NCBI GenBank assembly: GCA_963815215.1
Contig: CAWFFU010000003.1
Location: 1,120,001 to 1,184,000 of the forward strand
Direction of reading: 5' to 3'
Source of the DNA: an uncultured Trueperaceae bacterium
GTDB lineage: Bacteria; Deinococcota; Deinococci; Deinococcales; Trueperaceae
DNA: 64,000 nucleotides
Under the pieces are notes generated by a model, which was not told the origin of the DNA, did no database searches, and worked only from the letters and a program-made list of their open reading frames with translations. Positions within the stretch are counted from its first letter, which is position 1, and each line of letters starts with the position of its first letter. A program made the position numbers and the translations under genes. Positions 40,819 through 54,406 of the stretch are shown here, in pieces.

Positions 40819-42477
40819 TCAGGCTCGCTGCGCCTCCCGGTGGCGGTAGACCGGTGCGTCGCTCGGCGGGAGCGGCGTGTCTCCGCGGATCAGATCGGCC
40901 GCCTTCTCGGCGATCATCATCACCGGCGCGTAGATGTTGCCGTTGGTGATGATCGGCATGACGGAGGCGTCCACCACCCGCAGGCCCTCGAGGCCGTGGA
41001 CCTTCATGGACGAGGGGTCCACGACCGCCATCGCGTCGGTCCCCATCCTGGCGGTGCTGCAGGGGTGCAGCGCCGTCTCCGCGTCGCGGGCGACCCACGC
41101 GAGGATCTCCTCGTCGGTCTCGACCGACGGTCCCGGCGATAGCTCGCCGCCGTTGTAAGGCTCGAACGCCGGCTGCGTGAGGATGTGGCGGGCCGTGCGC
41201 ACCGCCTCCAGCCACTCGCGCCGATCGTTCGGCGTGGACAGGTAGTTGAAGCGCAGCGACGGCTTGACGCGCGGGTCGGTCGACACGATCTTCAGCTCGC
41301 CACGCACGTCGGAGAACATAGGGCCGACATGCACCTGGTAGCCGTGGCCGGACGCGGGCGAACTGCCGTCATAGCGGATGGCGAGCGGCAGGAAGTGGAA
41401 CATCAGGTTGGGCCAGGCCACCTCGTCGTTCGAGCGCACGAAGCCGCCTCCCTCGAAGTGATTGCTGGCACCCGCACCACTCCGGAAGAACAGCCACTGG
41501 AACCCCACCCACGGCCGCCGCCACCACTTCAACCAGGGTGCGACCGAGACAGGCTGCTTGGAGGCGTACTGGATGTAGACCTCGAGATGGTCCTGCAGGT
41601 TCTGCCCCACGCCAGACAAGTCGGCCACCGGCGCGATCCCCAGAGAGCGCAGGTGCTCCGCCGGACCGACCCCGGAGAGCTGCAGCAACTGCGGCGTGTT
41701 GATGGACCCGCCGCTGAGGATCACCTCGCCCGCGTCGACGCGCCGGAGCTGACCGCCGTGCTCGTACTCAACGCCGGTGGCGCGCGCGCCGTCGAAGAGG
41801 ACGCGGGTGACGAAGGCGCGGGTGCGAACGGTGAGGTTCGGCCGGCGGCGGACCGGGTCGAGGTACGCCTTCGAGGCCGACCAGCGCCTGCCGCGGTGGA
41901 TGTTCCGGTCGAACGGCGCGAAGCCTTCCTGTCGGTAGCCGTTGACGTCGTCGGTGAGGGAGTACCCCGCTTGCCGCACGGCCTCGAAGAACGCGCCGAA
42001 GAGTGGATTGGTGGCCGGGCCCCGCTCGAGGATGAGCGGACCGTCCCCCCCACGCCAGGCATCGGCGCCCGCCAGGCAGGTCTCCATCCGCTTGAAGTAC
42101 GGAAGGCAGTGAGCGTAGTCCCATGCTTCCATGCCCGGCGCCTGTGCCCAGCGGTCGTAGTCCATCGGGTTGCCGCGTTGGAAGATCATGCCGTTGATGC
42201 TCGAGGAGCCGCCGAGCACCTTGCCGCGCGCATGGTAGATCCGGCGCCCATCCATGTGGGGTTCCGGTTCGGTCTCGTAGCGCCAGTCGTAGCGCGGGTT
42301 CCCGATCGGGAACGGCAACGCCGCCGGCATGTGGATGAACACGTCCCAGGGCCAATCCGCACGCCCCGCCTCGAGGACCAGCACGCTCGCGGAAGCGTCC
42401 GTGCTCAAACGGTTCGCGATCGCCGAGCCGGCCGAGCCTCCACCCACGACCACCACGTCGTGTCGCTCGCTCTCCAT
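40819..42477 (-). CDS. betA: Choline dehydrogenase (GMC oxidoreductase)
   Basis: [47 protein letters not shown]. Confidence 0.9.
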
Positions 42478-42693
42478 GGCTCGCTCCTTCCCGCGGTGGT
42501 CCTGGTCGGAGCCGTCCCGACCGTGCCGCCGCGTGCCCACCCGGCTCGCCCGGACCCCATCGACCCCGCCGGACGGGGCCTGACCGACCCTGGACGCTAC
42601 CGATGGTACCAGGCGTCCTCCCGGGCCCATCGTCCCGGCCGTGCCCCGCGTCGGCCGACGCATCGCAAGGAGGGCCCAACGGCGTCCCCCGCA

Positions 42694-42745
42694 TTGACGA
42701 AGGGCCGGCCCAGGTTGTATGTTGTCAGACAACCGACGTCTGATA
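42694..42745 (+). promoter_or_regulatory. Promoter with FadR-type operator
   Basis: TTGACG-18-TATGTT; perfect palindrome GTTGTC-A-GACAAC at 42721-42733 overlapping -10/+1. Confidence 0.75.
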
Positions 42746-42780
42746 AGAGTAGGCCCGCCCTGCTCGCTACCTGGAGTCCC

Positions 42781-43515
42781 ATGCTCGAGGTCATCCCCAC
42801 ATCGAGGCTGCACGGAGTCATCCAAGACCGGCTCCGACGGTTCATCCTCGACAGTCAGCTCCGGCCCGGTGACAAGCTCCCCACCGAGAAGGAGCTGTCT
42901 GGCCGGCTGGGAGCGAGCCGGAGCGCCGTCCGCGAGGCGCTGCGCTCGCTCGAGGCGCTGGGCATGATCGAGGTCAAGCACGGCAAGGGTCGCTTCCTGC
43001 GGGCGTTCGACGTGGCCTCCATCGCGAGCAACCTGGCCTACTCGTTGACCTTCGACGCGGCCAGCATCCGCGACCTGCTGGAGGTTCGGCGCACGCTCGA
43101 GACGTCCTTCATCGCTCAGGCCACGCGGAAGCTCGAGGCCTCACGCATCGATAGGCTCTACGCCATCGTGGAACAGATGGCCCTCAGCGCGGACGCCGGG
43201 CGAGCGTTCATCGAGGAAGACATGGCCTTCCACAAGGTCCTGTTCGGCGCCCTCCACAACGAGGTCCTGAAGAAGATCCTCGATGTGTTCTGGGGGCTCT
43301 TCCAGCACCTTCACGCTCGGAACGTGCTGCCCCCGGGCGAAGCCGCCGCCACGGTGGCGTACCACCGCCAGATCGTGGACGCCATGGCGGCGAAGGACGT
43401 GACGAGCGCGCGCGAAGCGCTCGACGAGCACTTCCGCGACGTGGAACGACGCCTCGAGTCCGCGATCGAGGCCACGGGTGAGGAGGTGTCCCTGCCTACC
43501 GAGTTCGTTTCCTGA
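42781..43515 (+). CDS. FadR/GntR family transcriptional regulator
   Basis: [27 protein letters not shown] domain DMAFH and HN. Confidence 0.95.
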
Positions 43516-43577
43516 GGATCCGGACCCACGCCCGTCGTGCGCCCGGAACAGACCCGTCGACCGGACAAGGAGACATC

Positions 43578-44840
43578 GTGACACCAGCATCACGCTTCAA
43601 ACGCGTCGTTCTGATGACCCTCGGCGCCCTGCTACTGGGCACCGTACTGCCCATCTCACAGGCGTTCGCGCAAGGGAACAAGACGGTCGTCAACTACTGG
43701 CTGTGGCTGGACGACTCCACGGACCCGGTGTGGCCGGACCTCGTCAAGGAGTTCAACCAGACCCACCCCAACATCGAGGTGAAGTACCAGACCATCCCGC
43801 TGAGCCAGTACCACGACCGGCTCCTGACGGCGATCGGTTCCGGCAGCGCGCCCGACGCCGCACGCTTCAAGGACTGGTGGCTGGGCGAGTTCGTCTCCAA
43901 CGACCTGTTGCAGCCGCTCACCTCCTACATCCAGCAGTGGCCGGGCTCCAGTGACGTCATCCAGAACCTGTGGTCGACCGGCAAGACCTCGGCGGACAGC
44001 CCTGTCTACATGCTGCCTGCCCAGTACATCACCTTCTACCTGTACTACCGGGCGGACCGCCTGAAGGCGGCCGGGCTCGAGCCTCCCAAGACCTTCGCCG
44101 AGTTCGTGCAGGAAGCCAAGACGCTCACCGATCCGGCGAAGAAGCAGTACGGCTTCGCCCTCCGCGGCGGTGCCGGCGGCCAGGACCAGTGGTACGCCTT
44201 CATGCTGGCCCTCGGGTGCCACCTCGTGGACGGCAGTGGCGCCGTGGTGGCCGACAGCCAGGCCTGCGTCGACGCCAACCAGAAGTACATCGACCTGTTC
44301 CGGGTCGACAAGGTCACGCCACCGACCGCCCCCTCGGACGGCTTCGCCCAGATCATCGGCGGCTTCGAGTCGGGCATCACGACCTTCGCCGCGCACCACG
44401 TCGGTAGCTCGAAATCCCTGACGGAGAAGCTCGGCAGCGACCTGGGCGTCACCAACGTCCCGCCGGCCGATCCCAACAAGCCGGCGACGATGATGGCGAT
44501 GAGCGGGAACGTCGTGTTCGGGAGCTCCAAGGAGAAGCAGGCCGCCTTCACGTTCATCTCGTGGCTCGACACCCAGGGCCCGATGGACAAGATGAGCCGC
44601 TCGGCGAACGGGCAGCTCCCGGTCCTGACGTCCGTCGCCTCCGAGCCCTACTACCAGAACAACCCGTTCTTCAAGCTCTCGCTCGATCAGGCCAACTACG
44701 CGGTCGCCTGGCCGCCCCTCCCGGGCGTCGGGTACGTAGCGTCGCAGCTCTGGCAGGCGAGCATGCAGCAGGCCTTGCTCGGACAGATCACCAGCCAGCA
44801 GATGATGACGCAGATCGCCACCGCCCTGAAGCAGAAGTAG
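43578..44840 (+). CDS. Carbohydrate ABC transporter substrate-binding protein
   Basis: Signal peptide ending AFA; EFNQTHPNIEV, APD, LYYRAD, PPKT. Confidence 0.92.
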   Translation: MTPASRFKRVVLMTLGALLLGTVLPISQAFAQGNKTVVNYWLWLDDSTDPVWPDLVKEFNQTHPNIEVKYQTIPLSQYHDRLLTAIGSGSAPDAARFKDWWLGEFVSNDLLQPLTSYIQQWPGSSDVIQNLWSTGKTSADSPVYMLPAQYITFYLYYRADRLKAAGLEPPKTFAEFVQEAKTLTDPAKKQYGFALRGGAGGQDQWYAFMLALGCHLVDGSGAVVADSQACVDANQKYIDLFRVDKVTPPTAPSDGFAQIIGGFESGITTFAAHHVGSSKSLTEKLGSDLGVTNVPPADPNKPATMMAMSGNVVFGSSKEKQAAFTFISWLDTQGPMDKMSRSANGQLPVLTSVASEPYYQNNPFFKLSLDQANYAVAWPPLPGVGYVASQLWQASMQQALLGQITSQQMMTQIATALKQK

Positions 44841-44850
44841 AGGTCGCTCC

Positions 44851-45768
44851 ATGGTCCGCACCAGCGCACCACGCAACAGGTGGTTGAACCCGCGGCTCCG
44901 CCGACGCCTTGTCCCGGCACTGCTGCTGGCGCCGGCGGCACTGCTCCTGGTGTTCGTGATCGGCTACCCGCTGGTGCGGGCCATCCTCTTGACCTTCCAG
45001 AACTTCAACATGCTGCAGCCCTCCCGAACCACCTGGGTCGGGCTGCAGAACTTCGTCCAGGTCTTCCACAATCCGGTCTTCTGGATCGCCATGCGCAACA
45101 CCCTGGTGTGGGTGGCGAGCGCGGTGTCGCTGCAGCTCGTCTTCGGCTTCATCGGGGCACTCCTGCTCAACCAGTCGTTCTTCGGCCGCGACGTCGTCAG
45201 GGGCGTGCTCCTCATCCCATGGGCGACCCCCAGCGTGCTGGTTGCGTTGATGTGGATGTGGATGCTCGACGGGAACTACGGCATCGTCAACGAGATCCTC
45301 GTGCGCGTCGGGATCCTGAAGACCTTCTTCCCCTTCCTTTCCTCGCCCCACACGGCGCTACCCACCCTCATCATGATCGACGTGTGGCAGGGGATCCCGT
45401 TCTTCGCAGTCATGCTCCTCGCCGCCCTGCAGGCCATCCCGTTGGAGCTCGAGCAGGCGGCGCGGGTCGACGGAGCCAACCCGGCGCAAGTGTTGTGGCA
45501 CGTGAAGGTCCCCCTGCTCCTCCCGACCATCCTGATCACGACCATCCTGCGGCTCATCTGGACCGCCAACTACATGGACCTGATGTTCGTCATGACGAAC
45601 GGCGGGCCGGGCTACGCCACCACCACCATGCCGTTCTTCGCCTATACGGAGGCCTACCGGCGCATCCACTTCAGTACCGGCGCCACCGCGGCGTTCGTCC
45701 AGGCGCTCCTGCTGGGCCTGGTCATCATCGTGTACATCCGTATCCTTCGCCGACAGCAGGTGGTGTGA
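44851..45768 (+). CDS. Carbohydrate ABC transporter permease
   Basis: WVGLQNF, EQAARVDGA, MTNGGPG. Confidence 0.95.
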   Translation: MVRTSAPRNRWLNPRLRRRLVPALLLAPAALLLVFVIGYPLVRAILLTFQNFNMLQPSRTTWVGLQNFVQVFHNPVFWIAMRNTLVWVASAVSLQLVFGFIGALLLNQSFFGRDVVRGVLLIPWATPSVLVALMWMWMLDGNYGIVNEILVRVGILKTFFPFLSSPHTALPTLIMIDVWQGIPFFAVMLLAALQAIPLELEQAARVDGANPAQVLWHVKVPLLLPTILITTILRLIWTANYMDLMFVMTNGGPGYATTTMPFFAYTEAYRRIHFSTGATAAFVQALLLGLVIIVYIRILRRQQVV

Positions 45769-45769
45769 C

Positions 45770-46654
45770 ATGACAGGCACCTCGCACCGATCGACCGGCC
45801 TCGGCCGGACCCGTCCCCGGCCGCGCTTCCGCTGGCGCTGGGGTCGAGCGGGTCTGGGCATCGCCATCCTCGGGTGGTTGACGTTCGCCCTCGGGCCCTA
45901 CGTCTGGATGTTCCTGACATCGCTCAAGCCCAAGAGCGAGCTGTACACATCGCCCGTCCAGGTGCTGCCCCACTCCGTTACCTTCCTCGGCTACAAGCTG
46001 CTGGTCACCACGACGCCGTTCCTGCGCTACTTCCTGAACAGCGCCATCGTCTCGGCGGGCACCGTGGCGCTGGCCACGGTCGCGGCGGTGCTGGCGGCGT
46101 ATGCGCTCTCACGCTTCCGGATCCCCGGGAAGACCTACATCCTGATCGGCCTGCTGGTCACGCAGCTCATCCCCTCGGTCCTGATGGTGATGCCACTCTT
46201 CCTCACGCTGAGGACGATCGGCCTGCTGAACACCTGGTGGGGCCTCATCCTCGTGGACACCGCCTTCGCCCTGCCGTTCACGACCTATCTTCTGACGGGC
46301 TTCATGGACGCCGTACCCAAAGAGCTCGACGAGGCCGCCATGATCGACGGCTGCAACGAGATCACGGCCTTCCGCTGGGTGCTGGCGCCGCTGCTGGTAC
46401 CCGGTATCGCGGCGTCATCGACGTACGTGTTCATCTACTCCTGGAACGAGTTCATCTACGCCTTGACGTTCACCTCGACCACGGTGTCGCGCACGCTGCC
46501 CGTGGGCCTGCGAACGTTCATCGGCGAGTATCTGATCCGCTGGGACCTGCTGACCGCCGGCGGCGTCATCTCGGTGATCCCGACCATCCTGTTCTTCATG
46601 CTCGTGCAACGTAATCTCATCGCCGGCCTGACCGCCGGTGCCGTCAAAGGCTAG
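45770..46654 (+). CDS. Carbohydrate ABC transporter permease
   Basis: ELDEAAMIDG, WNEFIYA, GLTAGAVKG. Confidence 0.95.
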   Translation: MTGTSHRSTGLGRTRPRPRFRWRWGRAGLGIAILGWLTFALGPYVWMFLTSLKPKSELYTSPVQVLPHSVTFLGYKLLVTTTPFLRYFLNSAIVSAGTVALATVAAVLAAYALSRFRIPGKTYILIGLLVTQLIPSVLMVMPLFLTLRTIGLLNTWWGLILVDTAFALPFTTYLLTGFMDAVPKELDEAAMIDGCNEITAFRWVLAPLLVPGIAASSTYVFIYSWNEFIYALTFTSTTVSRTLPVGLRTFIGEYLIRWDLLTAGGVISVIPTILFFMLVQRNLIAGLTAGAVKG

Positions 46655-46697
46655 TCACCCATCCCTGGCAGCAATCCCGGAACCGAGGAGCTGGCAC

Positions 46698-47585
46698 ATG
46701 CAGACCGTCGCCGAACAACCCCACGACCTCGTCGCGCTGGAGGGCCTCGCCCGACAGATCCGGCGCGACAGCATCCGCATGATCGCCGGCACGGGCTCGG
46801 GCCATCCCGGCGGCGCGCTCGGTGCGGCCGAGCTGATCGCGGCGCTCTACGGCGCGGTCCTGCGGCACGACCCGCGGCGGCCCGACGACCCCGACCGGGA
46901 CCGCTTCGTGCTGAGCAACGGACACATCTGCGCAGCGTTCTACTCGGCGCTGTGCCGTACCGGCTACCTGGAACCCGCTGAGCTCGCCACCTTCCGGAAG
47001 CTCGACAGCCGCCTGCAGGGGCATCCCGCCCGGGTGGATCTCCCGGACCTCGTCGAGACCTCCTCGGGCCCGCTGGGCCAGGGGCTGTCGGTGGCCAACG
47101 GCCTGGCGCTGGCGGCGCGTCTCGACGGCAGGGACTCCCGCGTGTACTGTCTCGTCGGCGACGGCGAACTCCAGGAGGGCCAGATCTGGGAGGCCCTGAT
47201 GGCGGCCGCCCATCACCGGCTCGGCAACCTCACCCTGCTGATCAGCGACAACGGTCTGCAGATCGACGGCGAGGTGGAGCACGTCAAGCACATCTCACCG
47301 CTCCCCGACAAGCTCCGCGCCTTCGGCTGGCATGTCGACGAGATCGACGGGCACGACCTGCAGGCGATCCTCGAGGTCCTCGCGGGCGCGCCTCGCGCTG
47401 TGGCGGCCGACCGGCCGCACGCGGTCATCGCACGCACCGTCATGGGCAAGGGCGTGCCCTTCATGGAGAATCTCGCCAAGTGGCACGGAACCGTGCCGTC
47501 GCTCGACGAAGCCCGTCGGGCCCTGGAGGCCATCGGCCCGTCCGACGGCTACCTGGACTTCCCCCTTCAGGAGGTCGAGCTGTGA
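46698..47585 (+). CDS. Transketolase, N-terminal subunit
   Basis: SGHPGG, RDRFVLSNGH, LQGHP, GPLGQG, ThDP motif GDGELQEG. Confidence 0.95.
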   Translation: MQTVAEQPHDLVALEGLARQIRRDSIRMIAGTGSGHPGGALGAAELIAALYGAVLRHDPRRPDDPDRDRFVLSNGHICAAFYSALCRTGYLEPAELATFRKLDSRLQGHPARVDLPDLVETSSGPLGQGLSVANGLALAARLDGRDSRVYCLVGDGELQEGQIWEALMAAAHHRLGNLTLLISDNGLQIDGEVEHVKHISPLPDKLRAFGWHVDEIDGHDLQAILEVLAGAPRAVAADRPHAVIARTVMGKGVPFMENLAKWHGTVPSLDEARRALEAIGPSDGYLDFPLQEVEL

Positions 47586-48547
47586 ACCTCAACGACCCCA
47601 TGCCCATCCGGGAGGCCTTCGGCAAGGCGCTCGTCGAGCTCGGCGCCACCGAGCCCGACCTCGTCGTGCTCACGGCCGATCTGGCCGAGGCGATCAAGGT
47701 GCACTGGTTCGCGGAGGCCTACCCCGAGCGCTTCTTCCAGATGGGCATCTCCGAGAGCGACATGATCGGCACCGCGGCGGGCCTGGCGCTCGCCGGGAAG
47801 ATCCCGTTCGCGACGACCTTCGCCGTGTTCGCCACCTCGCTGGCGAACCAGGCGGTGCGGCTGTCCGTCGCCTACAACCGCACCAACGTCAAGATCGCCG
47901 CCAGCCACGGTGGGCTCCAGGTCGGCGAGGACGGGGCGACCCACCAGGCCATCGAGGACCTCGCGCTCATGCGCGTGCTCCCGGGCATGACCGTGATCGC
48001 GCCCTGCGACGCGCGCGAGGCCGTGAAGGCGACCGTGGCGGCCGCACGCCATGACGGCCCGGTATACCTGCGGCTGGGACGCATCCCCACCCCCATCGTC
48101 ACCGCCGAGGACACCCCCTTCGAGATCGGCAAGGCCGTCACGCTCCGCGAGGGGGGCGACGTCGCACTCCTCAGCATCGGGACCATGATCGGTCCGGCGC
48201 TGGAAGCGGCCCAAACGCTCTCCTCGGCAGGCATCGAGGCCGCCGTCGTCAACGTCCACACGCTCAAACCGCTGGACGAACAGGCCGTGCTCGAGCACGC
48301 ACGCGCCTGCGGAGCCCTGGTCACCATCGAGGAGCACACGATCCTCGGCGGCCTCGGCGGCGCGGTAGCCGAGACCCTGGCCGGAGCGAGGCCGACGCCG
48401 CTCGAGAGGGTCGGGATCCGCGACACGTTCGGCGAGTCCGGACCACCGGCGGCGCTGTTCGAGAAGTACGGACTCACCGCCAAGGACATCGTGGCGGCCG
48501 CGTTACGGGCCGTAGGGCGGAAACGGGACCTGGCGGTGAGCCTATGA
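47582..48547 (+). CDS. Transketolase, C-terminal subunit
   Basis: MGISESDMIG, GEDGATHQ, GPVYLRLGR, EEHTILGGLG; GTGA overlap. Confidence 0.95.
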   Translation: MNLNDPMPIREAFGKALVELGATEPDLVVLTADLAEAIKVHWFAEAYPERFFQMGISESDMIGTAAGLALAGKIPFATTFAVFATSLANQAVRLSVAYNRTNVKIAASHGGLQVGEDGATHQAIEDLALMRVLPGMTVIAPCDAREAVKATVAAARHDGPVYLRLGRIPTPIVTAEDTPFEIGKAVTLREGGDVALLSIGTMIGPALEAAQTLSSAGIEAAVVNVHTLKPLDEQAVLEHARACGALVTIEEHTILGGLGGAVAETLAGARPTPLERVGIRDTFGESGPPAALFEKYGLTAKDIVAAALRAVGRKRDLAVSL

Positions 48548-49347
48548 CGGGCGGCCCAGCCGGCCGACGGCCCTGGCATGTGCGCGAACCGCGCGAGGAG
48601 GGCCGCCGGACCTTGATCGAGCGTGGCGAGGGTGGCGCCCGCGAGCTGGAGCTCCAGCGCCTGCGGCTCGGCGAAGGGAAGCGCCAGGAGCTTCACTTCC
48701 CGGGATGCGAGGCTGTCGTGGTGCTGCTGGACGGCACGGTGGAGTTCGCCGCCGACAAGACCGTTCACGGCGCGAGCCGCTCCGACCCGTTCTCGGGTCC
48801 TGCCAGCGCTCTCTACCTGCCCCCCGATGCGACGGCGACGGTCCGAGCGATCTCGAACGATTGCGAGCTCCTGGCGGTCACCACACCGTGCCACACGCCG
48901 GGCTCGATCCGCTTCGTGGCCCCCGACGAGGTCGAAGTCGTGGACCGCGGCGTCGACGGCTACCGGCGCGAGGTCCACAACATCCTCGTCGACGACGACG
49001 TGGCACAGCGGCTGTTGGTCGGTGAGACTTTCAACCCGCCCGGGGGCTGGTCGAGCTTCCCTCCGCACAAGCACGACGGCGAGAACGGCGAGCCCTACCT
49101 CGAGGAGGTCTACTACTACCGGACCGATCCCCGGCGCGGCTTCGGCTTCCAGGGCCTGTACGCCAACGACGGCACGCTCGACGAGGCGACACGCGTGCTG
49201 GACGGGGACGCGGCCCTTCTTCAGCGCGGTTACCATCCCGTGGCCGCGGCCCCCGGCTACCGCCTGTACTACTTCTGGGCGCTCGCCGGAGAACAGCGCA
49301 AGCTGGTGGTGTTCGAGGACGAGGCGCACGCCTGGATCGGCCGCTAG
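48544..49347 (+). CDS. iolB: 5-deoxy-glucuronate isomerase (IolB/KduI family)
   Basis: GGWSSFPPHKHD, LEEVYYY, GFGFQ, RGYHPVAAAPGYRLYY. Confidence 0.9.
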   Translation: MTGGPAGRRPWHVREPREEGRRTLIERGEGGARELELQRLRLGEGKRQELHFPGCEAVVVLLDGTVEFAADKTVHGASRSDPFSGPASALYLPPDATATVRAISNDCELLAVTTPCHTPGSIRFVAPDEVEVVDRGVDGYRREVHNILVDDDVAQRLLVGETFNPPGGWSSFPPHKHDGENGEPYLEEVYYYRTDPRRGFGFQGLYANDGTLDEATRVLDGDAALLQRGYHPVAAAPGYRLYYFWALAGEQRKLVVFEDEAHAWIGR

Positions 49348-49529
49348 GCGCTCCGACCGGCCCCCGACGGCGCCGATCCCGGCGCCTCGGGCCGCACGCA
49401 CAACCGTTCAAGACAAGCAGGGCGCTCTCCGCCTAGGATCCCCCTCGATGCGCGTAGCCCTCGAGGGGGACGCCCGGGCTCCCGCCCGTATGCACGGCGG
49501 CCTCCCTCGGAGCGGAAGGTGAGGCCGTC

Positions 49530-50402
49530 ATGCCCATCGGATTCATCGGTCTCGGCGTCATGGGGTTGCCCATGGCCCTGCGACTCGCTGGAGCAAACGT
49601 CGAGCTCGTCGTCTGGAACCGCTCGCCGGAGAGGTCCGAACGACTCCGCGCGGCCGGAGCAACGGTAGCGCCCAGCCCGGCCGGAGTCTTCGCGCGGGCG
49701 CGCACGGTGATCCTCATGCTGGCCGACGCAGACGCGACCGACGCCACCTTGGGCCGCGGCACCCCCGCGTTCGCCGCCAACGTGGCAGGACGAACGATCG
49801 TGCCCATGGGCACGACCACGCCCGGCTACTCGCACCGGCTCGAAGCCGACGTCCTCGCTGCCGGCGGTCGGTTCGTCGAAGCCCCGGTCTCCGGGTCGCG
49901 GGGACCCGCCGAGGATGGCACCCTGGTCGCGATGCTGGCCGGCGAGCCCGCCAGTATCGAGCGGGTCCGACCGCTCCTCGATCCGATGTGCCGGGACTCC
50001 GTCGTGTGCGGACCGGTCCCCACGGCGCTGCTCATGAAGCTATCTGTCAACGTCTTCCTGATCGGGATGGTCACGAGCCTGGCGGAGTCCGTGCACTTCG
50101 CCGAACGCCACGGGCTGGACTTGAGCCTGCTCCGGACCGTGATCGACGCCGGACCGATGGCGAGCGTCGTGTCACGGGCCAAGATGGCCAAGCTCGTCGA
50201 ACGAGACTTCACTGTGCAGGCCGCGATCCCGGACGTGCTCAAGAACGCACGGCTCATCACCGACGAGGCGCGCGCGGCCTCCCTGGCCTCGCCCTTGCTG
50301 GACGTCTGCCACGCCCTGTATGCCGAGGCCCTGACGCTGGGCTTCGGCCGGTCCGACATGGCTGCCGTGCTCCACGCGATCGAGGGTCGTACCGACGCGT
50401 GA
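49530..50402 (+). CDS. NAD(P)-dependent oxidoreductase, beta-hydroxyacid dehydrogenase family
   Basis: [21 protein letters not shown], catalytic MKLSVN. Confidence 0.92.
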
Positions 50403-50475
50403 TCCGCGTGATCCCATCGGCGTGATCCCATCTGCGTGATCCGATCCCGGCCGTGCTGACCCCACGGATCGACCG

Positions 50476-51372
50476 CTATCCCGGCGCGGAGCTCCCCGCG
50501 GCCCGCCCCCGCACCGCGGCGGCCCATGCCGCGGGCGTCAGACCGTAGGTCCGTTTGAACGACCGAGACATGTGGCTCTGGTCGGTGAACCCGGACTCCA
50601 GGGCCACGGCAGACAGCGGCATGCCCGCAAGCATCATGCGGCGCGCCCGGTCCAGTCGCCGCATCGTGCAGAAACGGCTCGGGCTGGTGCCGAAGGCCTG
50701 CCGGAACCGCCGCGCGAGCGTCCACCGGTCCAGACCCGAGATCCGCTCGAGCGCCTCGACCCGGTGCCGTACCGTCGGATCCTCAACGATGATCTCCCTC
50801 ACGCGCAAGAGCTGGGCCCACGGCAGCGGAGACGGGCGGGGCGCCGACGCGCCGGCGTGCCGCTGCAACGAGGCGGCGACGGCCACCGCGACGTCCACGC
50901 GCTCGACCTCCCCGAGAGGCTCATCGATCCGCCGCAGGTATGCGCCCAGCGTCGGATCCATCTGCGCGCGCCCGATGACCGGATCGGCCACGAACGGGAG
51001 CGCCCGCCCCCCCAGCGCTTCCTGCACGAGTGCGGGGTCGATGTAGAGGATCGCATAAGCGAACCCGTCCTCCGTGCCGGCGCCACCGTCGTGCACCTCA
51101 TCCGGGTGGAGGACATGTCCTTCCCCCGGCAGGCACACGCGCCGTCGACCGCGGTATCGGAACGTCTGCACACCCGCCAGCGTCACCCCGATGGCGTACG
51201 TGTCGTGCCGATGCGGCGCGTATGCCAGGCCCCGGAGGCGCACCGCGACACGCTCGACGCCCTCGGCTCCGGCACCGAGCTTCAGCCACAATCCGCTCGC
51301 TCCGCGTTCGCCGACAGGCTCGGACAGCCCGCGCAAAGGGGCGTCGGCATCCGTATCCAGGCTCACTCTCAC
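50476..51372 (-). CDS. AraC family transcriptional regulator
   Basis: PHRHDTY cupin, PDEVHDG, GFTDQSHMSRSFKRTYGLTP; TAGCTT -10 lies 7 nt before GTG 51372. Confidence 0.9.
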   Translation of the reverse strand: MRVSLDTDADAPLRGLSEPVGERGASGLWLKLGAGAEGVERVAVRLRGLAYAPHRHDTYAIGVTLAGVQTFRYRGRRRVCLPGEGHVLHPDEVHDGGAGTEDGFAYAILYIDPALVQEALGGRALPFVADPVIGRAQMDPTLGAYLRRIDEPLGEVERVDVAVAVAASLQRHAGASAPRPSPLPWAQLLRVREIIVEDPTVRHRVEALERISGLDRWTLARRFRQAFGTSPSRFCTMRRLDRARRMMLAGMPLSAVALESGFTDQSHMSRSFKRTYGLTPAAWAAAVRGRAAGSSAPG

Positions 51373-51552
51373 CGCACTCAAGCTACACCAGGGCGGACCC
51401 CGGCGGGCCCGCCGGAAGGCCGCACCATGACGGGCGCTCGGCCGCTCGACACGGCCCGGCCACAGGGGAGGAACCACGCAGCCAACGGGACAATCGCACC
51501 TCTCGACCACGCGCGAAGCGGACCTACCCTGAGCCGACGGCTGCGAGGTCCC

Positions 51553-52539
51553 GTGCACATCCCTGACGGCTTCATCTCCCTTCCCACTTCGCTCGCTGCC
51601 GCCGCGGCGGCAGCGGCGGGCGTGGGCGTGGCCTTGCGACGGAGCGACGCCGCCCTGGAACGGAGGGCCGTCCCCCTCGCCGGGCTCCTCGCTGCGTTCA
51701 TCTTCGCCGCCCAGATGCTCAACGTCCCCATCGCGGCCGGCACCAGCGGCCACCTCCTGGGCGCAGGCCTGGCGGCCGTCCTGCTGGGGCCGTGGCTCGC
51801 CACGGTCAGCTTGACGGCCGTCGTGCTCGTGCAGGCCTTGCTGTTCGCGGACGGCGGGATCGTGGCCCTCGGCCTCAACGTGCTCAACATGGCGGTGGTG
51901 GCGCCCTGGCTGGCCTGGGGCGCGTTCCGCCTCGCCCAGGCGACCCTGCCGCGCAACTCAGCGTCCGACGCGACCGCCACGTTCCTCGCGGGCGCGCTCG
52001 GAGTCGTGGGTGCGGCCGGCGCCTTCGGCCTCGAATACGCGCTGGGCGGCGTGGGTGGCGTCCCCGTGTTGCTGGTGGCAGGCACCATGCTCGGCGTCCA
52101 CGCCGTCATCGGGGTGGGGGAGGGACTGATCACGGCCGCCGCGGTCGGCACGATCCGCTCGCTCCGTCCCGATCTCGTCGCGAGCGCCGGCCCCAGGTCC
52201 GCGCGTGCCGCGCACGGAGCGCGCCGCCGACGCCTGGCGGGCGCCGCCGCGGTCCTGGCCGCCCTGGCACTGGCCGCTGCCGCGGGCCCACTGGCTAGTA
52301 CCTTGCCGGACGGCCTCGAGCACGTGGCGTCGACGCTCGGATTCGCGGGCCACGAGCGCCTCAGTCCGGTCGCCGCCGGACCGCTGGCGGGCTACTCCAT
52401 GCCCGGCATGGCCGCCGCCGTGGCGGGAACGTCGCTGGCCGGGGTGTTGGGCGTGCTCGCCGTACTTGCCGTGACCGCGGCCGTGCGGGGCCTGCGGAGC
52501 CTCCACGCCCGCGGAACCGAGGAGCGCGACCCGACGTGA
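51553..52539 (+). CDS. cbiM: ECF Co/Ni transporter S component CbiM fused to a PDGLE domain
   Basis: MHIPDGF N-terminus, AAQMLN, GTSGHLLG, FADGG, PDGLE. Confidence 0.92.
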   Translation: MHIPDGFISLPTSLAAAAAAAAGVGVALRRSDAALERRAVPLAGLLAAFIFAAQMLNVPIAAGTSGHLLGAGLAAVLLGPWLATVSLTAVVLVQALLFADGGIVALGLNVLNMAVVAPWLAWGAFRLAQATLPRNSASDATATFLAGALGVVGAAGAFGLEYALGGVGGVPVLLVAGTMLGVHAVIGVGEGLITAAAVGTIRSLRPDLVASAGPRSARAAHGARRRRLAGAAAVLAALALAAAAGPLASTLPDGLEHVASTLGFAGHERLSPVAAGPLAGYSMPGMAAAVAGTSLAGVLGVLAVLAVTAAVRGLRSLHARGTEERDPT

Positions 52540-53393
52540 GGCCCGTTCGCGTGAGGCCCGTTCGCGTGAGGCCCCGTCGCGCAGCGCCCGAAGCGGGCCA
52601 TGCCTCGGCCGCGACCCACACCGCGACCCAGACCGCGACCCAGGCCGCGACGATACCGGGAGCGGTCCCTCCGGGCTGGACCCGTCTCGCCCCGCAGGCC
52701 AAGCTCGCCTCCATGCTGGCGACGGCGGTCGCCGTGGTGGCCCTGCCGGTCACGGCCTACGCCGCCTTCGTGGCCATCGCGGCCGTCCTCGCGGGATTGC
52801 TCGTCTCAGCCCGTATCCGGCCGCGTTGGCTGCTCCGGCGCATCTGGATCGGTACCCCTGTCGCGCTCTACGCGCTCCTCCTGCCCTTCACGCACGCGCA
52901 CCCCACCTCCACCCTGGTGGGCTTGCCGTGGTCGCCCGTCGGCGCCCAGGCGGGCGCCGCCCTGTTCATCAAGGCTGTCCTGTCGCTGCTGGCAGCGTCG
53001 CTGGTCGCTGCCACGACACCGAGCGCGGACCTGCTCGTAGGAGCGCAGCGCCTCGGTTTCCCGCCTCGGCTCATCGAGGTGGCCGGCTTCATGTTGCGTT
53101 ATCTCGATCTCGTGACGGCCGACCTTCAGCGGACCCGCACGTCGATGGCGGCCCGCGGCTTCCGCGGCCGGGGCGCCGCAGCCGCCCGCCTGCTGGCTCC
53201 TCTTCTGGGACACCTCTTCGTGCGCACGTTCGAGCGAGGCGAGCGCGTCTACCAGGCGATGCACGCACGCGGATACGACGGCCGCGTGCCCGACCTGGGG
53301 CGTCGGTCCGTGAGCGTCGACGCGTGGTTGACGGCCGGTCTCGTCCCGGCGTTCGCGTGGGGGTGCTACGCGTGGGCGCACCTCGCCCGCTAG
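52536..53393 (+). CDS. cbiQ: ECF transporter T component CbiQ
   Basis: FMLRY, SMAARG, RTFERGERVYQAMHARGY. Confidence 0.9.
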   Translation: MRPVRVRPVRVRPRRAAPEAGHASAATHTATQTATQAATIPGAVPPGWTRLAPQAKLASMLATAVAVVALPVTAYAAFVAIAAVLAGLLVSARIRPRWLLRRIWIGTPVALYALLLPFTHAHPTSTLVGLPWSPVGAQAGAALFIKAVLSLLAASLVAATTPSADLLVGAQRLGFPPRLIEVAGFMLRYLDLVTADLQRTRTSMAARGFRGRGAAAARLLAPLLGHLFVRTFERGERVYQAMHARGYDGRVPDLGRRSVSVDAWLTAGLVPAFAWGCYAWAHLAR

Positions 53394-53400
53394 GCCCGCC

Positions 53401-54234
53401 GTGACCCGGGACCGTCGCCACGCCGCCGGTATCACCGCTGCGGGCGCCTCGCCCGCCGACCCCGGCGGCGAAACGGCGCCGACTCGCGAAGGCCGGGAGC
53501 TGCTCGCCGTCGACGACCTCTGGTACGACTATCCCGACGGCACGGCCGCCCTGAGCGGCGCCTCGCTCCGGCTCCGGAGCGACGAGCGGCTGGCGCTGCT
53601 CGGGCCGAACGGCTCCGGCAAGACCACGCTCGTGCTGCACTTGCTCGGCGTCCTTCGCGCCGCCAGCGGCAGCATCCGCGTCCTGGGAAGGCCGCTCGAC
53701 TCCTCCGGCATCGACGCCGCGGGCGGCCGGCTAGGGGTCCTGTTCCAGGAGCCGCGCGACCAGCTCTTCATGGCGCGGGTGTGGGACGACGTGGCGTTCG
53801 GCCCCGCCAACCAGGGGCTGAGCGGCGACCCCCTCGACCGTCGTGTCGAGGAAGCGCTGTGCACCGTCGGCCTCGCGGGCGCCGGCGAACGCTCGCCGGC
53901 CCATCTGAGCGTCGGGGAGCAGCGCCGCGCCGCACTGGCAGCCGTGCTCGCCATGCGGCCCGAGGTCCTGGTGCTCGACGAGCCCACGGCGAACCTCGAC
54001 CCTTCCGGACGCCGCGATCTGGCGCGCCTGCTCATCGACCTGCAGATCCCGCTGCTGTTGGTGACGCACGACCTGCCGTTCGCCCTCGAGCTGTGTCCGA
54101 ACGCGCTCGTCATGGACGGCGGACACATCGTCGCCGGCGGCCCCACGGCGACACTCCTGGGCCAACGCGAGACCATGCGACGGCACCGTCTCGAGTTGCC
54201 CTACGGCTTCGACCCTGGGGCCGGTCGGGGGTAG
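53401..54234 (+). CDS. cbiO: ECF transporter ATPase CbiO
   Basis: GPNGSGKT, LFQEPRDQLF, DVAFGPAN, LSVGE, LDEPT. Confidence 0.92.
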   Translation: MTRDRRHAAGITAAGASPADPGGETAPTREGRELLAVDDLWYDYPDGTAALSGASLRLRSDERLALLGPNGSGKTTLVLHLLGVLRAASGSIRVLGRPLDSSGIDAAGGRLGVLFQEPRDQLFMARVWDDVAFGPANQGLSGDPLDRRVEEALCTVGLAGAGERSPAHLSVGEQRRAALAAVLAMRPEVLVLDEPTANLDPSGRRDLARLLIDLQIPLLLVTHDLPFALELCPNALVMDGGHIVAGGPTATLLGQRETMRRHRLELPYGFDPGAGRG

Positions 54235-54308
54235 CACGGGGACACGCTAGGCCGCGGGGCGCGGCCGAGGTCCGGAAGCCCCCACCAGCGGTCCCGCCCG
54301 AGCCGTCG

Positions 54309-54324
54309 CGTCAAGCGTTTGACG
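54309..54324. promoter_or_regulatory. Palindromic operator GTCAA-N4-TTGAC (copy 1)
   Basis: CGTCAAGCGTTTGACG; near-identical copy at 59401-59414. Confidence 0.5.
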
Positions 54325-54406
54325 GTGCGCCGCGGCCGAGCGCTGCACGATGGTCATCGCTGACCCCCTCCCCCATCCTCATCGGCGGACCCAGCAGGAG
54401 GAGACC

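Follow-up and report, generated by a model that had tools for sequence, protein, structure and literature searches.

A kinase-free operon that pairs a divergent split transketolase with an IolB-like isomerase in a Deinococcota genome, a candidate route for carboxylate-sugar catabolism

To our knowledge, kinase-free breakdown of a sugar by a transketolase has been documented so far only for sulfoquinovose. In the D-apiose transketolase pathway, a dedicated split transketolase (AptA/AptB) works with an FGGY kinase, a SorC regulator and a CUT2 importer, and the kinase is required. KduI-family enzymes isomerise uronate-type aldehydes. In the canonical inositol route, the IolB step is followed by the IolC kinase and the IolJ aldolase. 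The sulfo-transketolase (sulfo-TK) pathway of Clostridium sp. MSTE9 and Faecalicatena (SqvD, SqwGH, SqwI and SqwF) combines a split transketolase that acts on an unphosphorylated sugar, glyceraldehyde-3-phosphate as the acceptor, an aldose–ketose isomerase and a terminal aldehyde reductase, with no kinase (as described in part of PMC9594981). Here we describe an operon with the same outline, known from genes alone, in a 64-kb window (G000:C3:1120001-1184000, the whole stretch of DNA analysed) of a Deinococcota genome (G000; 3.3 Mb, ~70% GC) that, among named genomes, comes closest to Truepera and Trueperaceae metagenome-assembled genomes. This operon may encode an isomerase–transketolase, kinase-free catabolic route for a carboxylate sugar that follows sulfo-TK-like logic, a reading that we consider plausible and hold at a little short of an even chance.

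Genes were called by Pfam and NCBIfam scans together with direct reading of the window sequence. The operon and its control region comprise the following features:

42694–42723, plus strand: sigma-70-like promoter-like site (TTGACG at 42694, 18-nt spacer, TATGTT)
42721–42733: perfect 13-nt palindrome GTTGTCAGACAAC, a predicted FadR-type operator that overlaps the −10 box TATGTT
42781–43515, plus strand: GntR regulator with an FCD domain, FadR subfamily (PF00392, 5.5e-18; PF07729, 8.9e-25)
43578–44840, plus strand: CUT1-type solute-binding protein with a signal peptide (PF01547, PF13416)
44851–45768, plus strand: ABC permease 1 (PF00528; MalF/MalG- and UgpA/UgpE-like)
45770–46654, plus strand: ABC permease 2 (PF00528; MalF/MalG- and UgpA/UgpE-like)
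46698–47585, plus strand: transketolase N subunit (TK-N), binding thiamine diphosphate (ThDP)
47582–48547, plus strand: transketolase Pyr+C subunit (TK-C), whose GTG start overlaps the TGA stop of TK-N (GTGA)
48544–49347, plus strand: KduI/IolB-family cupin isomerase of the IolB2 clade (PF04962), with an ATGA overlap with the TK-C stop
49348–49529: spacer between the IolB2 and reductase genes, with two GC-rich hairpins, including a 9-bp CCCCCTCGA/TCGAGGGGG stem
49530–50402, plus strand: beta-hydroxyacid dehydrogenase (the reductase), 182 nt after the IolB2 gene

The genes are densely packed in one direction, and the GTGA and ATGA overlaps couple TK-N, TK-C and IolB2. An earlier reading of this DNA (the initial annotation) had placed the same genes, the coupled transketolase subunits and the 182-nt gap where we found them. 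It had also proposed that the operon is free of a sugar kinase, an aldolase and iolC/D/E/G, and none of these was found in the operon. Kinase and iolC/D/E/G genes were likewise missing from all four orthologous copies of the operon. The proposal was to be abandoned if a kinase or the full iol set proved regular in orthologous clusters, and with neither in any of the four (0/4) it stands on this count.

We aligned the transketolase subunits of the four operons (the window clade) with further split transketolases, 115 for TK-C and 79 for TK-N, that came from Deinococcota, Thermaceae iol clusters and metagenomes. The window clade differed from the others as follows:

TK-C position 37: Ala in the window clade, Ser in 98% of the others
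TK-C position 59: Ser in the window clade, Gln in 94% of the others
TK-C position 86: Ser in the window clade, Gly in 73% of the others
TK-C position 87: Leu in the window clade, Arg in 100% of the others (115/115)
TK-C position 90: Gln in the window clade, Glu in 80% of the others
TK-C position 91: Ala in the window clade, Gln in 83% of the others
TK-N position 183: Ser in the window clade, Asp in 100% of the others (79/79)
TK-N one-residue insertion (L118): in the window clade, absent in the others

TK-C retains R10, H109, D117, H121 and R167. Among these, H109, D117 and H121 are the equivalents of E. coli H461, D469 and H473, and TK-N carries the GDGE...N metal motif. In the E. coli transketolase, R358, S385, D469 and R520 set substrate preference (as given in part of PMC7661550). 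The generic head-group pattern (R-S-F-H-R, comprising R358, S385, H461 and R520, plus Gly-Arg after the Phe pair) is broken in the window enzyme by Ala37, which occupies the E. coli S385 position, and by Leu87. The sulfofructose transketolase has the motif RAFDR (S383A, H466D) in place of the RSFHR of phosphosugar enzymes (PMC11659671, section 3.4), and at the four alignable head-group positions the window TK-C reads R-A-H-R, sharing the Ala with SqwH and not the Asp. Consistent with the initial annotation, the window transketolase is, judged from its sequence, not a standard phosphosugar enzyme: it has Ala at the S385-equivalent position, as in the sulfofructose enzyme (PMC11659671, section 3.4), and Leu in place of an otherwise invariant Arg, which sets it in a distinct Leu87 subfamily. 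The retained R10, H109, D117, H121 and R167 would still serve a phosphorylated acceptor. There is chemical precedent for an unphosphorylated keto-hexonate as donor: 5-keto-D-gluconate yields tartaric semialdehyde when cleaved by a transketolase, and the reaction improves with the phosphate-pocket changes R358I/H461S/R520Q (as reported in part of PMC12016104).

The best solved relative of the window enzyme is the split transketolase of Carboxydothermus hydrogenoformans (6yaj/6yak; E 9e-103, ~50% identical to TK-C). Both are split enzymes of alpha2-beta2 architecture with matching catalytic residues, whereas the Carboxydothermus pocket is generic (Ser, Thr, Gly-Arg) and the window enzyme has Ala, Ile and Ser-Leu at those positions, Ala37 aligning with the Ser.

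In a collection of 5.8 billion proteins, Leu87 was present in 113 of the best 120 homologues of TK-C (59–96% identity), and the named ones among these came from Spirochaetes, Sphaerochaetaceae, Treponemataceae, Bacteroidetes and Trueperaceae. Judged from these best 120 sequences, the Leu87 subfamily is a wide one. A protein-cluster look-up with one homologue gave clusters labelled 'transketolase' only. Generic split transketolases at 47–60% identity carry Arg87, both in 80 listed metagenome loci and in the best 30 Bacillota matches; position 37 was variable in the former and Ser (29/30) or Gly (1/30) in the latter. In the literature searched, which leaves most subscription journals outside, we found no description of the Leu87 subfamily or of an IolB–transketolase operon.

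One possible explanation for the gene order is that an ordinary pentose-phosphate transketolase lies by chance beside a transporter and unrelated enzymes. All catalytic residues that we checked are kept, and split transketolases often have housekeeping roles. However, the genes are translationally coupled, the GntR–ABC–transketolase order is kept in four genomes from three genera, the residues substituted here do not vary in other split transketolases, and the genome has a separate full-length transketolase (C3:335744-337759). We give this explanation hardly any credence.

The Ser-to-Ala change, which section 3.4 of PMC11659671 reports for SqwH, also raised the possibility that the operon is a sulfo-TK variant for sulfoquinovose, in which sulfoacetaldehyde or a C4 sulfonate end product is reduced by a YihU-family dehydrogenase. 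The kinase-free logic with an isomerase and a reductase fits this idea, and the DNA occurs in metagenome runs from sediment, soil and salt marsh, where sulfolipid is presumably plentiful. However, the His-to-Asp change of SqwH was absent: His109 is retained in all four clade members and in 120/120 of the best database homologues. The sulfo-TK cluster includes the sulfoquinovosidase YihQ, SqvB (DUF4867), FucI-like SqvD and RpiB-like SqwI (cluster composition as given in part of PMC9594981), and the window operon was found to contain none of these four and no exporter for sulfonates. The sulfo-TK isomerases are the FucI- and RpiB-like enzymes and its reductase is an iron-dependent alcohol dehydrogenase, whereas the window operon has a KduI/IolB cupin, a beta-hydroxyacid dehydrogenase and, in its transketolase, the additional Arg-to-Leu change. 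The sulfolactaldehyde reductase model gave the window dehydrogenase 90 bits against a cut-off of 348. A sulfosugar, one of the substrates that the initial annotation had suggested, is unlikely on these grounds, and the sulfo-TK variant as a whole seems highly improbable. A search for DUF4867 in the four operon genomes was silent, and the control genomes were equally silent. GH31 genes are present in all four operon genomes, far from the operon.

The comparison with AptAB, also made in the initial annotation, belongs elsewhere in the same genome. The window operon resembles the D-apiose pathway in having its own dedicated split transketolase among genes for the use of a sugar, and lacks the FGGY kinase, SorC regulator and CUT2 importer. 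These neighbours were found instead around a second split transketolase (L040; G000:C3:1186000-1205999), ~28 kb downstream of the operon and outside the window, in a kinase-bearing cluster that also encodes DUF2291, a xylose-isomerase-like TIM barrel and an aldo-keto reductase. The TK-C of this apiose-type cluster is 41% identical to the window TK-C and has pocket changes of its own (His to Ser, GED to GAL).

The window isomerase has so far been taken for a lone IolB, and this did not hold. Contig C11 of G000 carries the whole canonical iol set (IolD, E, G, B, R, A, C and J) with its own IolB, and the window copy is a divergent paralogue, 34% identical to it. In a quick maximum-likelihood tree of 80 sequences, midpoint-rooted and with several long branches flagged (including that of genome G363), a deep split with 99% SH-aLRT support separated two groups. 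The canonical group (35 rows) includes the C11 and Thermaceae copies, and its genome-derived members all adjoin iol genes. The other group, IolB2 (45 rows), holds the window protein, homologues from three further loci (L004, L005 and L006) and every third of the best 120 database matches (40 rows). The window protein falls outside the canonical group, and iol genes are missing from all four operons. It also has little similarity to KduI: the E. coli KduI structures matched only at E ~6e-3, and no KduI NCBIfam match was found at 1e-5.

IolB2 occurs at ≥62% identity in four Deinococcota genomes, in three of them within the transketolase operon. In genome G252 (L006), UxaE comes next after the IolB2 gene, and then genes for a D-mannonate oxidoreductase (NF006132, 381 bits; cut-off 281) and a hexonate epimerase of the LarA type. 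The fourth genome, Truepera sp. (L005), has IolB2 opening an operon with UxaE, two short-chain dehydrogenases/reductases (SDRs) and LarA, with genes for a tripartite ATP-independent periplasmic (TRAP) transporter and UxaC adjoining. The UxaE, D-mannonate oxidoreductase and LarA-type epimerase genes of the hexuronate isomerase pathway (UxaC, UxaE, UxuB) thereby adjoin IolB2-clade genes in two relatives. Because these neighbours are hexuronate enzymes, the clade is tied to hexuronate chemistry, and it is tied to hexuronate genes at least as much as to the transketolase; its substrate would be a uronate-type aldehyde, as this gene context suggests. In contrast to that pathway, the window operon lacks the reductase, dehydratase, kinase and aldolase sequence, with the transketolase in its place; the genes of G000 for the hexuronate isomerase pathway are on contig C14. 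There (L039; G000:C14:12000-31999) we observed the order LacI, UxaE, a D-mannonate oxidoreductase-like SDR, a LarA-type epimerase and UxaC, with TRAP transporter genes divergent, an arrangement that suggests conversion of fructuronate to mannonate and then to gluconate by a nickel-pincer epimerase.

IolB2 scores 205.5 bits against the cut-off of 205 of the curated 5-deoxy-glucuronate isomerase model TIGR04378, and it shares with canonical IolB the Pfam family and the proposed reaction type (uronate aldehyde to hydroxymethyl ketone). It might then be a true 5-deoxy-glucuronate isomerase on an inositol branch, in which the transketolase cleaves 2-deoxy-5-keto-gluconate and bypasses IolC and IolJ for an imported inositol derivative or 5-deoxy-glucuronate. 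Our working of the Fischer projections by hand gave 2-deoxy-5-keto-D-gluconate the D-threo configuration that transketolase donors need. There is also a genomic precedent, in which a split transketolase stands in for IolC and IolJ. Thermaceae iol clusters (L008, L009, L013, L015, L016, L017 and L074; for example, L015:3328-10756) run ABC importer, IolD, IolE, tartrate dehydrogenase (TIGR02089, 499 bits against a cut-off of 470), TK-N, TK-C, IolG, IolB and IolR, without IolC or IolJ, and an IolC orthologue was found in none of five such genomes. These clusters seem to represent a variant of myo-inositol catabolism that relies on a transketolase and is so far undescribed; it perhaps proceeds via D-malate semialdehyde and D-malate. 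In G363, from another Deinococcota family, a TK-C (51% identical) immediately adjoins IolD and IolE in a cluster where IolC and IolJ are likewise missing (L072; G363:C100 413-4064); the IolB of this genome is 43% identical to IolB2 and forms a long basal branch on the IolB2 side of the tree.

However, the Thermaceae TK-C proteins differ in the pocket, with Tyr for the H461 equivalent, GYT for GED and Arg87 kept. G000 already possesses the whole canonical pathway, including IolC, IolJ and IolA; no IolG, IolE or IolD lies in or near any of the four operons, and IolC, IolJ and IolA are likewise missing near the window IolB2, where the transketolase takes the place of the kinase and aldolase. The operon is equipped with a transporter and a regulator of its own, and IolB2 forms a separate deep clade. 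We regard the inositol branch as very unlikely.

To place the operon among relatives, we compared 364 Deinococcota genomes, of which four carry it. Close TK-C orthologues (72–97% identity) were found in only three genomes besides G000, namely G334, G252 and G301. G000 and G334, from one genus, share the order GntR, binding protein, permease, permease, TK-N, TK-C and IolB2, followed by the beta-hydroxyacid dehydrogenase (HIBADH). G252 has the same seven genes and then the three hexuronate genes described above; a ROK-family gene lies ~1.5 kb past LarA on the opposite strand. G301 has a divergent GFO/IDH/MocA gene, then the GntR-to-TK-C genes and a zinc-dependent alcohol dehydrogenase (Zn-ADH), without IolB2. 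The role of IolB as the pathway isomerase, claimed in the initial annotation, is weakened by its absence from the G301 operon. The operon is accessory and patchily distributed, and was probably acquired by transfer. Searches with TK-C elsewhere gave nothing above 54% identity in a plasmid collection and no match at E 1e-112 in a Bacteroidota sample (401 genomes); in a Bacillota sample (401 genomes) 210 genomes gave a match, and the best 30 comprised generic enzymes only. Among the 80 metagenome loci listed (47–59% identical), there were no new copies of the operon and no window-operon or canonical iol panel genes, and nine had a weak class-II aldolase match (24–32%).

The part common to all four operons is the GntR regulator, binding protein, two permeases, TK-N and TK-C only, and the accessory sets differ: IolB2 with HIBADH; IolB2 with UxaE, UxuB and LarA; or Zn-ADH with the divergent GFO/IDH/MocA gene. 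An alternative reading is that the importer and transketolase form a conserved unit that cleaves an unphosphorylated neutral ketose, imported or made by a dehydrogenase (for example, erythrulose or a rare hexulose), and that IolB2 and the reductase were added in particular lineages to handle the aldehyde product. Neutral sugars are the ligands of the binding protein's solved relatives, and the loss of the pocket Ser and Arg would also suit an uncharged tail. Against a neutral substrate are the presumed carboxylate ligands of the nearest FCD-type GntR regulators, a reductase family that works on hydroxy-acids, and the hexuronate enzymes that adjoin IolB2 in relatives. We consider this reading doubtful, though it merits more weight than the inositol and sulfosugar alternatives.

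The regulator has the N-terminal GntR winged helix-turn-helix and C-terminal FCD domain of the FadR subfamily. Its best NCBIfam matches were NanR, LldR, PdhR, GlcC and UxuR, all under cut-offs, which we take to be carboxylate sensors. The palindrome GTTGTCAGACAAC, first pointed out in the initial annotation, occurs once in the 64-kb window, over the only promoter-like site that a promoter scan of 42400–50700 returned, and would fit TnGTnnnACnA, the FadR-subfamily consensus. For the importer, the initial annotation was correct in part: a binding protein and two MalF/MalG-type permeases of a CUT1 set are present, and Pfam and NCBIfam scans revealed no ABC ATPase gene within the operon. We assume a shared ATPase acting in trans, for which no search was made. 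The best solved relatives of the binding protein are Lin1841, 5ci5 and GacH, at E only ~1e-24, and it had no NCBIfam match.

The reductase is closest in sequence to gamma-hydroxybutyrate, glyoxylate and succinic-semialdehyde reductases. Its best solved relatives are 3pef (E 5e-41) and 3pdu (3.5e-37), which we take to be Geobacter gamma-hydroxybutyrate/succinic-semialdehyde reductases, and 3doj, presumably Arabidopsis glyoxylate reductase 1. It belongs to the beta-hydroxyacid dehydrogenases at the Pfam level only and passed no NCBIfam equivalog cut-off, with 143 bits against 341 for tartronate-semialdehyde reductase, 118 against 350 for L-threonate dehydrogenase and 113 against 292 for 3-hydroxyisobutyrate dehydrogenase, in addition to the sulfolactaldehyde score given above. 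An orthologue was found in two of ten genus genomes, the operon carriers G000 and G334. The proposed role in aldehyde reduction, made in the initial annotation, gains from these relatives and from co-occurrence with the operon in the genus, and is weakened by the restriction to that genus's two genomes.

Malate synthase was not found in the four operon genomes, nor was any glyoxylate carboligase that passed its cut-off, and DUF1537 tetronate kinases were absent from five genomes (G000, G334, G252, G301 and G320), whereas control genomes were positive for malate synthase and DUF1537. Because these enzymes are lacking, it is plausible that a small aldehyde-acid would be disposed of by reduction, and a C4 tetronate product would be without a known onward route in the operon genomes. 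The Thermus and Deinococcus controls have malate synthase, and its absence in the operon genomes is unusual.

Taken as a carboxylate-sugar route, the operon would be repressed by its own FadR-type regulator at the single operator over the promoter. The CUT1 importer, with its ATPase in trans, would take up an unphosphorylated and, as the initial annotation also proposed, probably anionic sugar. IolB2 would isomerise the uronate, an aldehyde, to the corresponding hydroxymethyl ketone. The split transketolase, with its remodelled head-group pocket, would then move the C1–C2 ketol to glyceraldehyde-3-phosphate, giving xylulose-5-phosphate and a C4 aldehyde-acid, and this remainder would either be isomerised and cleaved again, to glyoxylate, or be reduced directly. 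No kinase would be needed because phosphate enters with the acceptor, as in sulfo-TK. We infer the substrate class, the step order, the acceptor and the iterative second round alike. A hexuronate or keto-hexonate is the most likely substrate; other candidates are 4-deoxy-hexosulose uronate (from a lyase), 5-deoxy-glucuronate, a neutral ketose and sulfoquinovose. By our own stereochemical working, three compounds would be D-threo at C3–C4, as transketolase donors require: D-fructuronate, formed from glucuronate or mannuronate; 5-keto-D-gluconate, formed from L-iduronate, L-guluronate or L-idonate; and 2-deoxy-5-keto-gluconate. Only in the 5-keto-gluconate series would the ketose of the second round have the usual configuration at C3.

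Several observations weigh against a carboxylate-sugar route. In the transketolase, R10, H109 and R167, three phosphate ligands, are kept, so that a phosphorylated donor would be compatible with the sequence, and the putative pocket role of position 87 is deduced from where it falls in the helix that follows the two conserved Phe residues and not from a structure. The binding protein resembles, weakly, binders of neutral di- and oligosaccharides and polyols, and there is no glycosidase at the operon beside it. IolB2 does reach the curated TIGR04378 cut-off, by half a bit, and it is not obligatory: Zn-ADH takes its place in G301, whose sole IolB is canonical-like, 41% identical and elsewhere in the genome. 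The best 120 TK-C and best 120 IolB2 database matches rarely share a contig; by eye there are two clear same-size pairs (4601 and 2913 nt) and one possible pair (2028 nt). The link between reductase and operon is confined to one genus, and G000 and G334, at ~93% DNA identity across the region, count as one event. Finally, the hairpin-bearing 182-nt spacer leaves co-transcription of the reductase with the operon only putative. The spacer is 98% conserved in the sister genome, its hairpins have z = −2.1, and it may be a T-less terminator, an attenuator or a repeat element; we found no intrinsic terminator-like site in 42400–50700 with a scan that requires a T-run, a feature that may be unused in a genome of 70% GC.

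Beyond the operon, an AraC gene lies convergent after the reductase gene. Together with a CbiMNQO-type Ni/Co energy-coupling factor (ECF) transporter, the operon, reductase and AraC regulator form a block at 42497–54377 (~11.9 kb) that was found in only two of ten genus genomes, G000 and G334. Its BetA and Pyr_redox flanks are conserved across the genus but are on different contigs where the block is missing. The upstream flank is:

40819 to ~42480, minus strand: choline dehydrogenase BetA (TIGR01810, 853 bits against a cut-off of 732), divergent from the GntR gene

We rejected this glucose-methanol-choline (GMC) oxidoreductase as a pathway enzyme: it is BetA and is kept in genus members without the operon. 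The predicted operator is ~240 nt from the BetA start, and shared regulation with BetA is not expected.

A bolder extension of the carboxylate-sugar reading, which we think unlikely, is that Leu87 split transketolases form a widespread subfamily (Deinococcota, Spirochaetota and Bacteroidota) for unphosphorylated keto-uronates. With IolB2, they would run an ATP-free, iterative 'uronate-TK' pathway in which a hexuronate and two glyceraldehyde-3-phosphate give two xylulose-5-phosphate and glyoxylate; the glyoxylate would then go to glycolate via the glyoxylate reductase (GLYR)-like dehydrogenase, because malate synthase and glyoxylate carboligase are lacking. If true, this would be the carboxylate counterpart of sulfo-TK and a third hexuronate route beside the isomerase and oxidative ones.

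The operon points to a second use of kinase-free transketolase logic, and to a large uncharacterised transketolase subfamily with natural changes at or beside the positions that engineers mutate for non-phosphorylated and acidic substrates. Should a uronate or keto-aldonate prove to be the substrate, the operon would represent a new catabolic route for acid sugars, its transketolase would be a ready-made biocatalyst for carbon–carbon chemistry on sugar acids (for example, to tartaric semialdehyde), and a function would be found for an IolB sister clade that is now mislabelled as 5-deoxy-glucuronate isomerase in databases.

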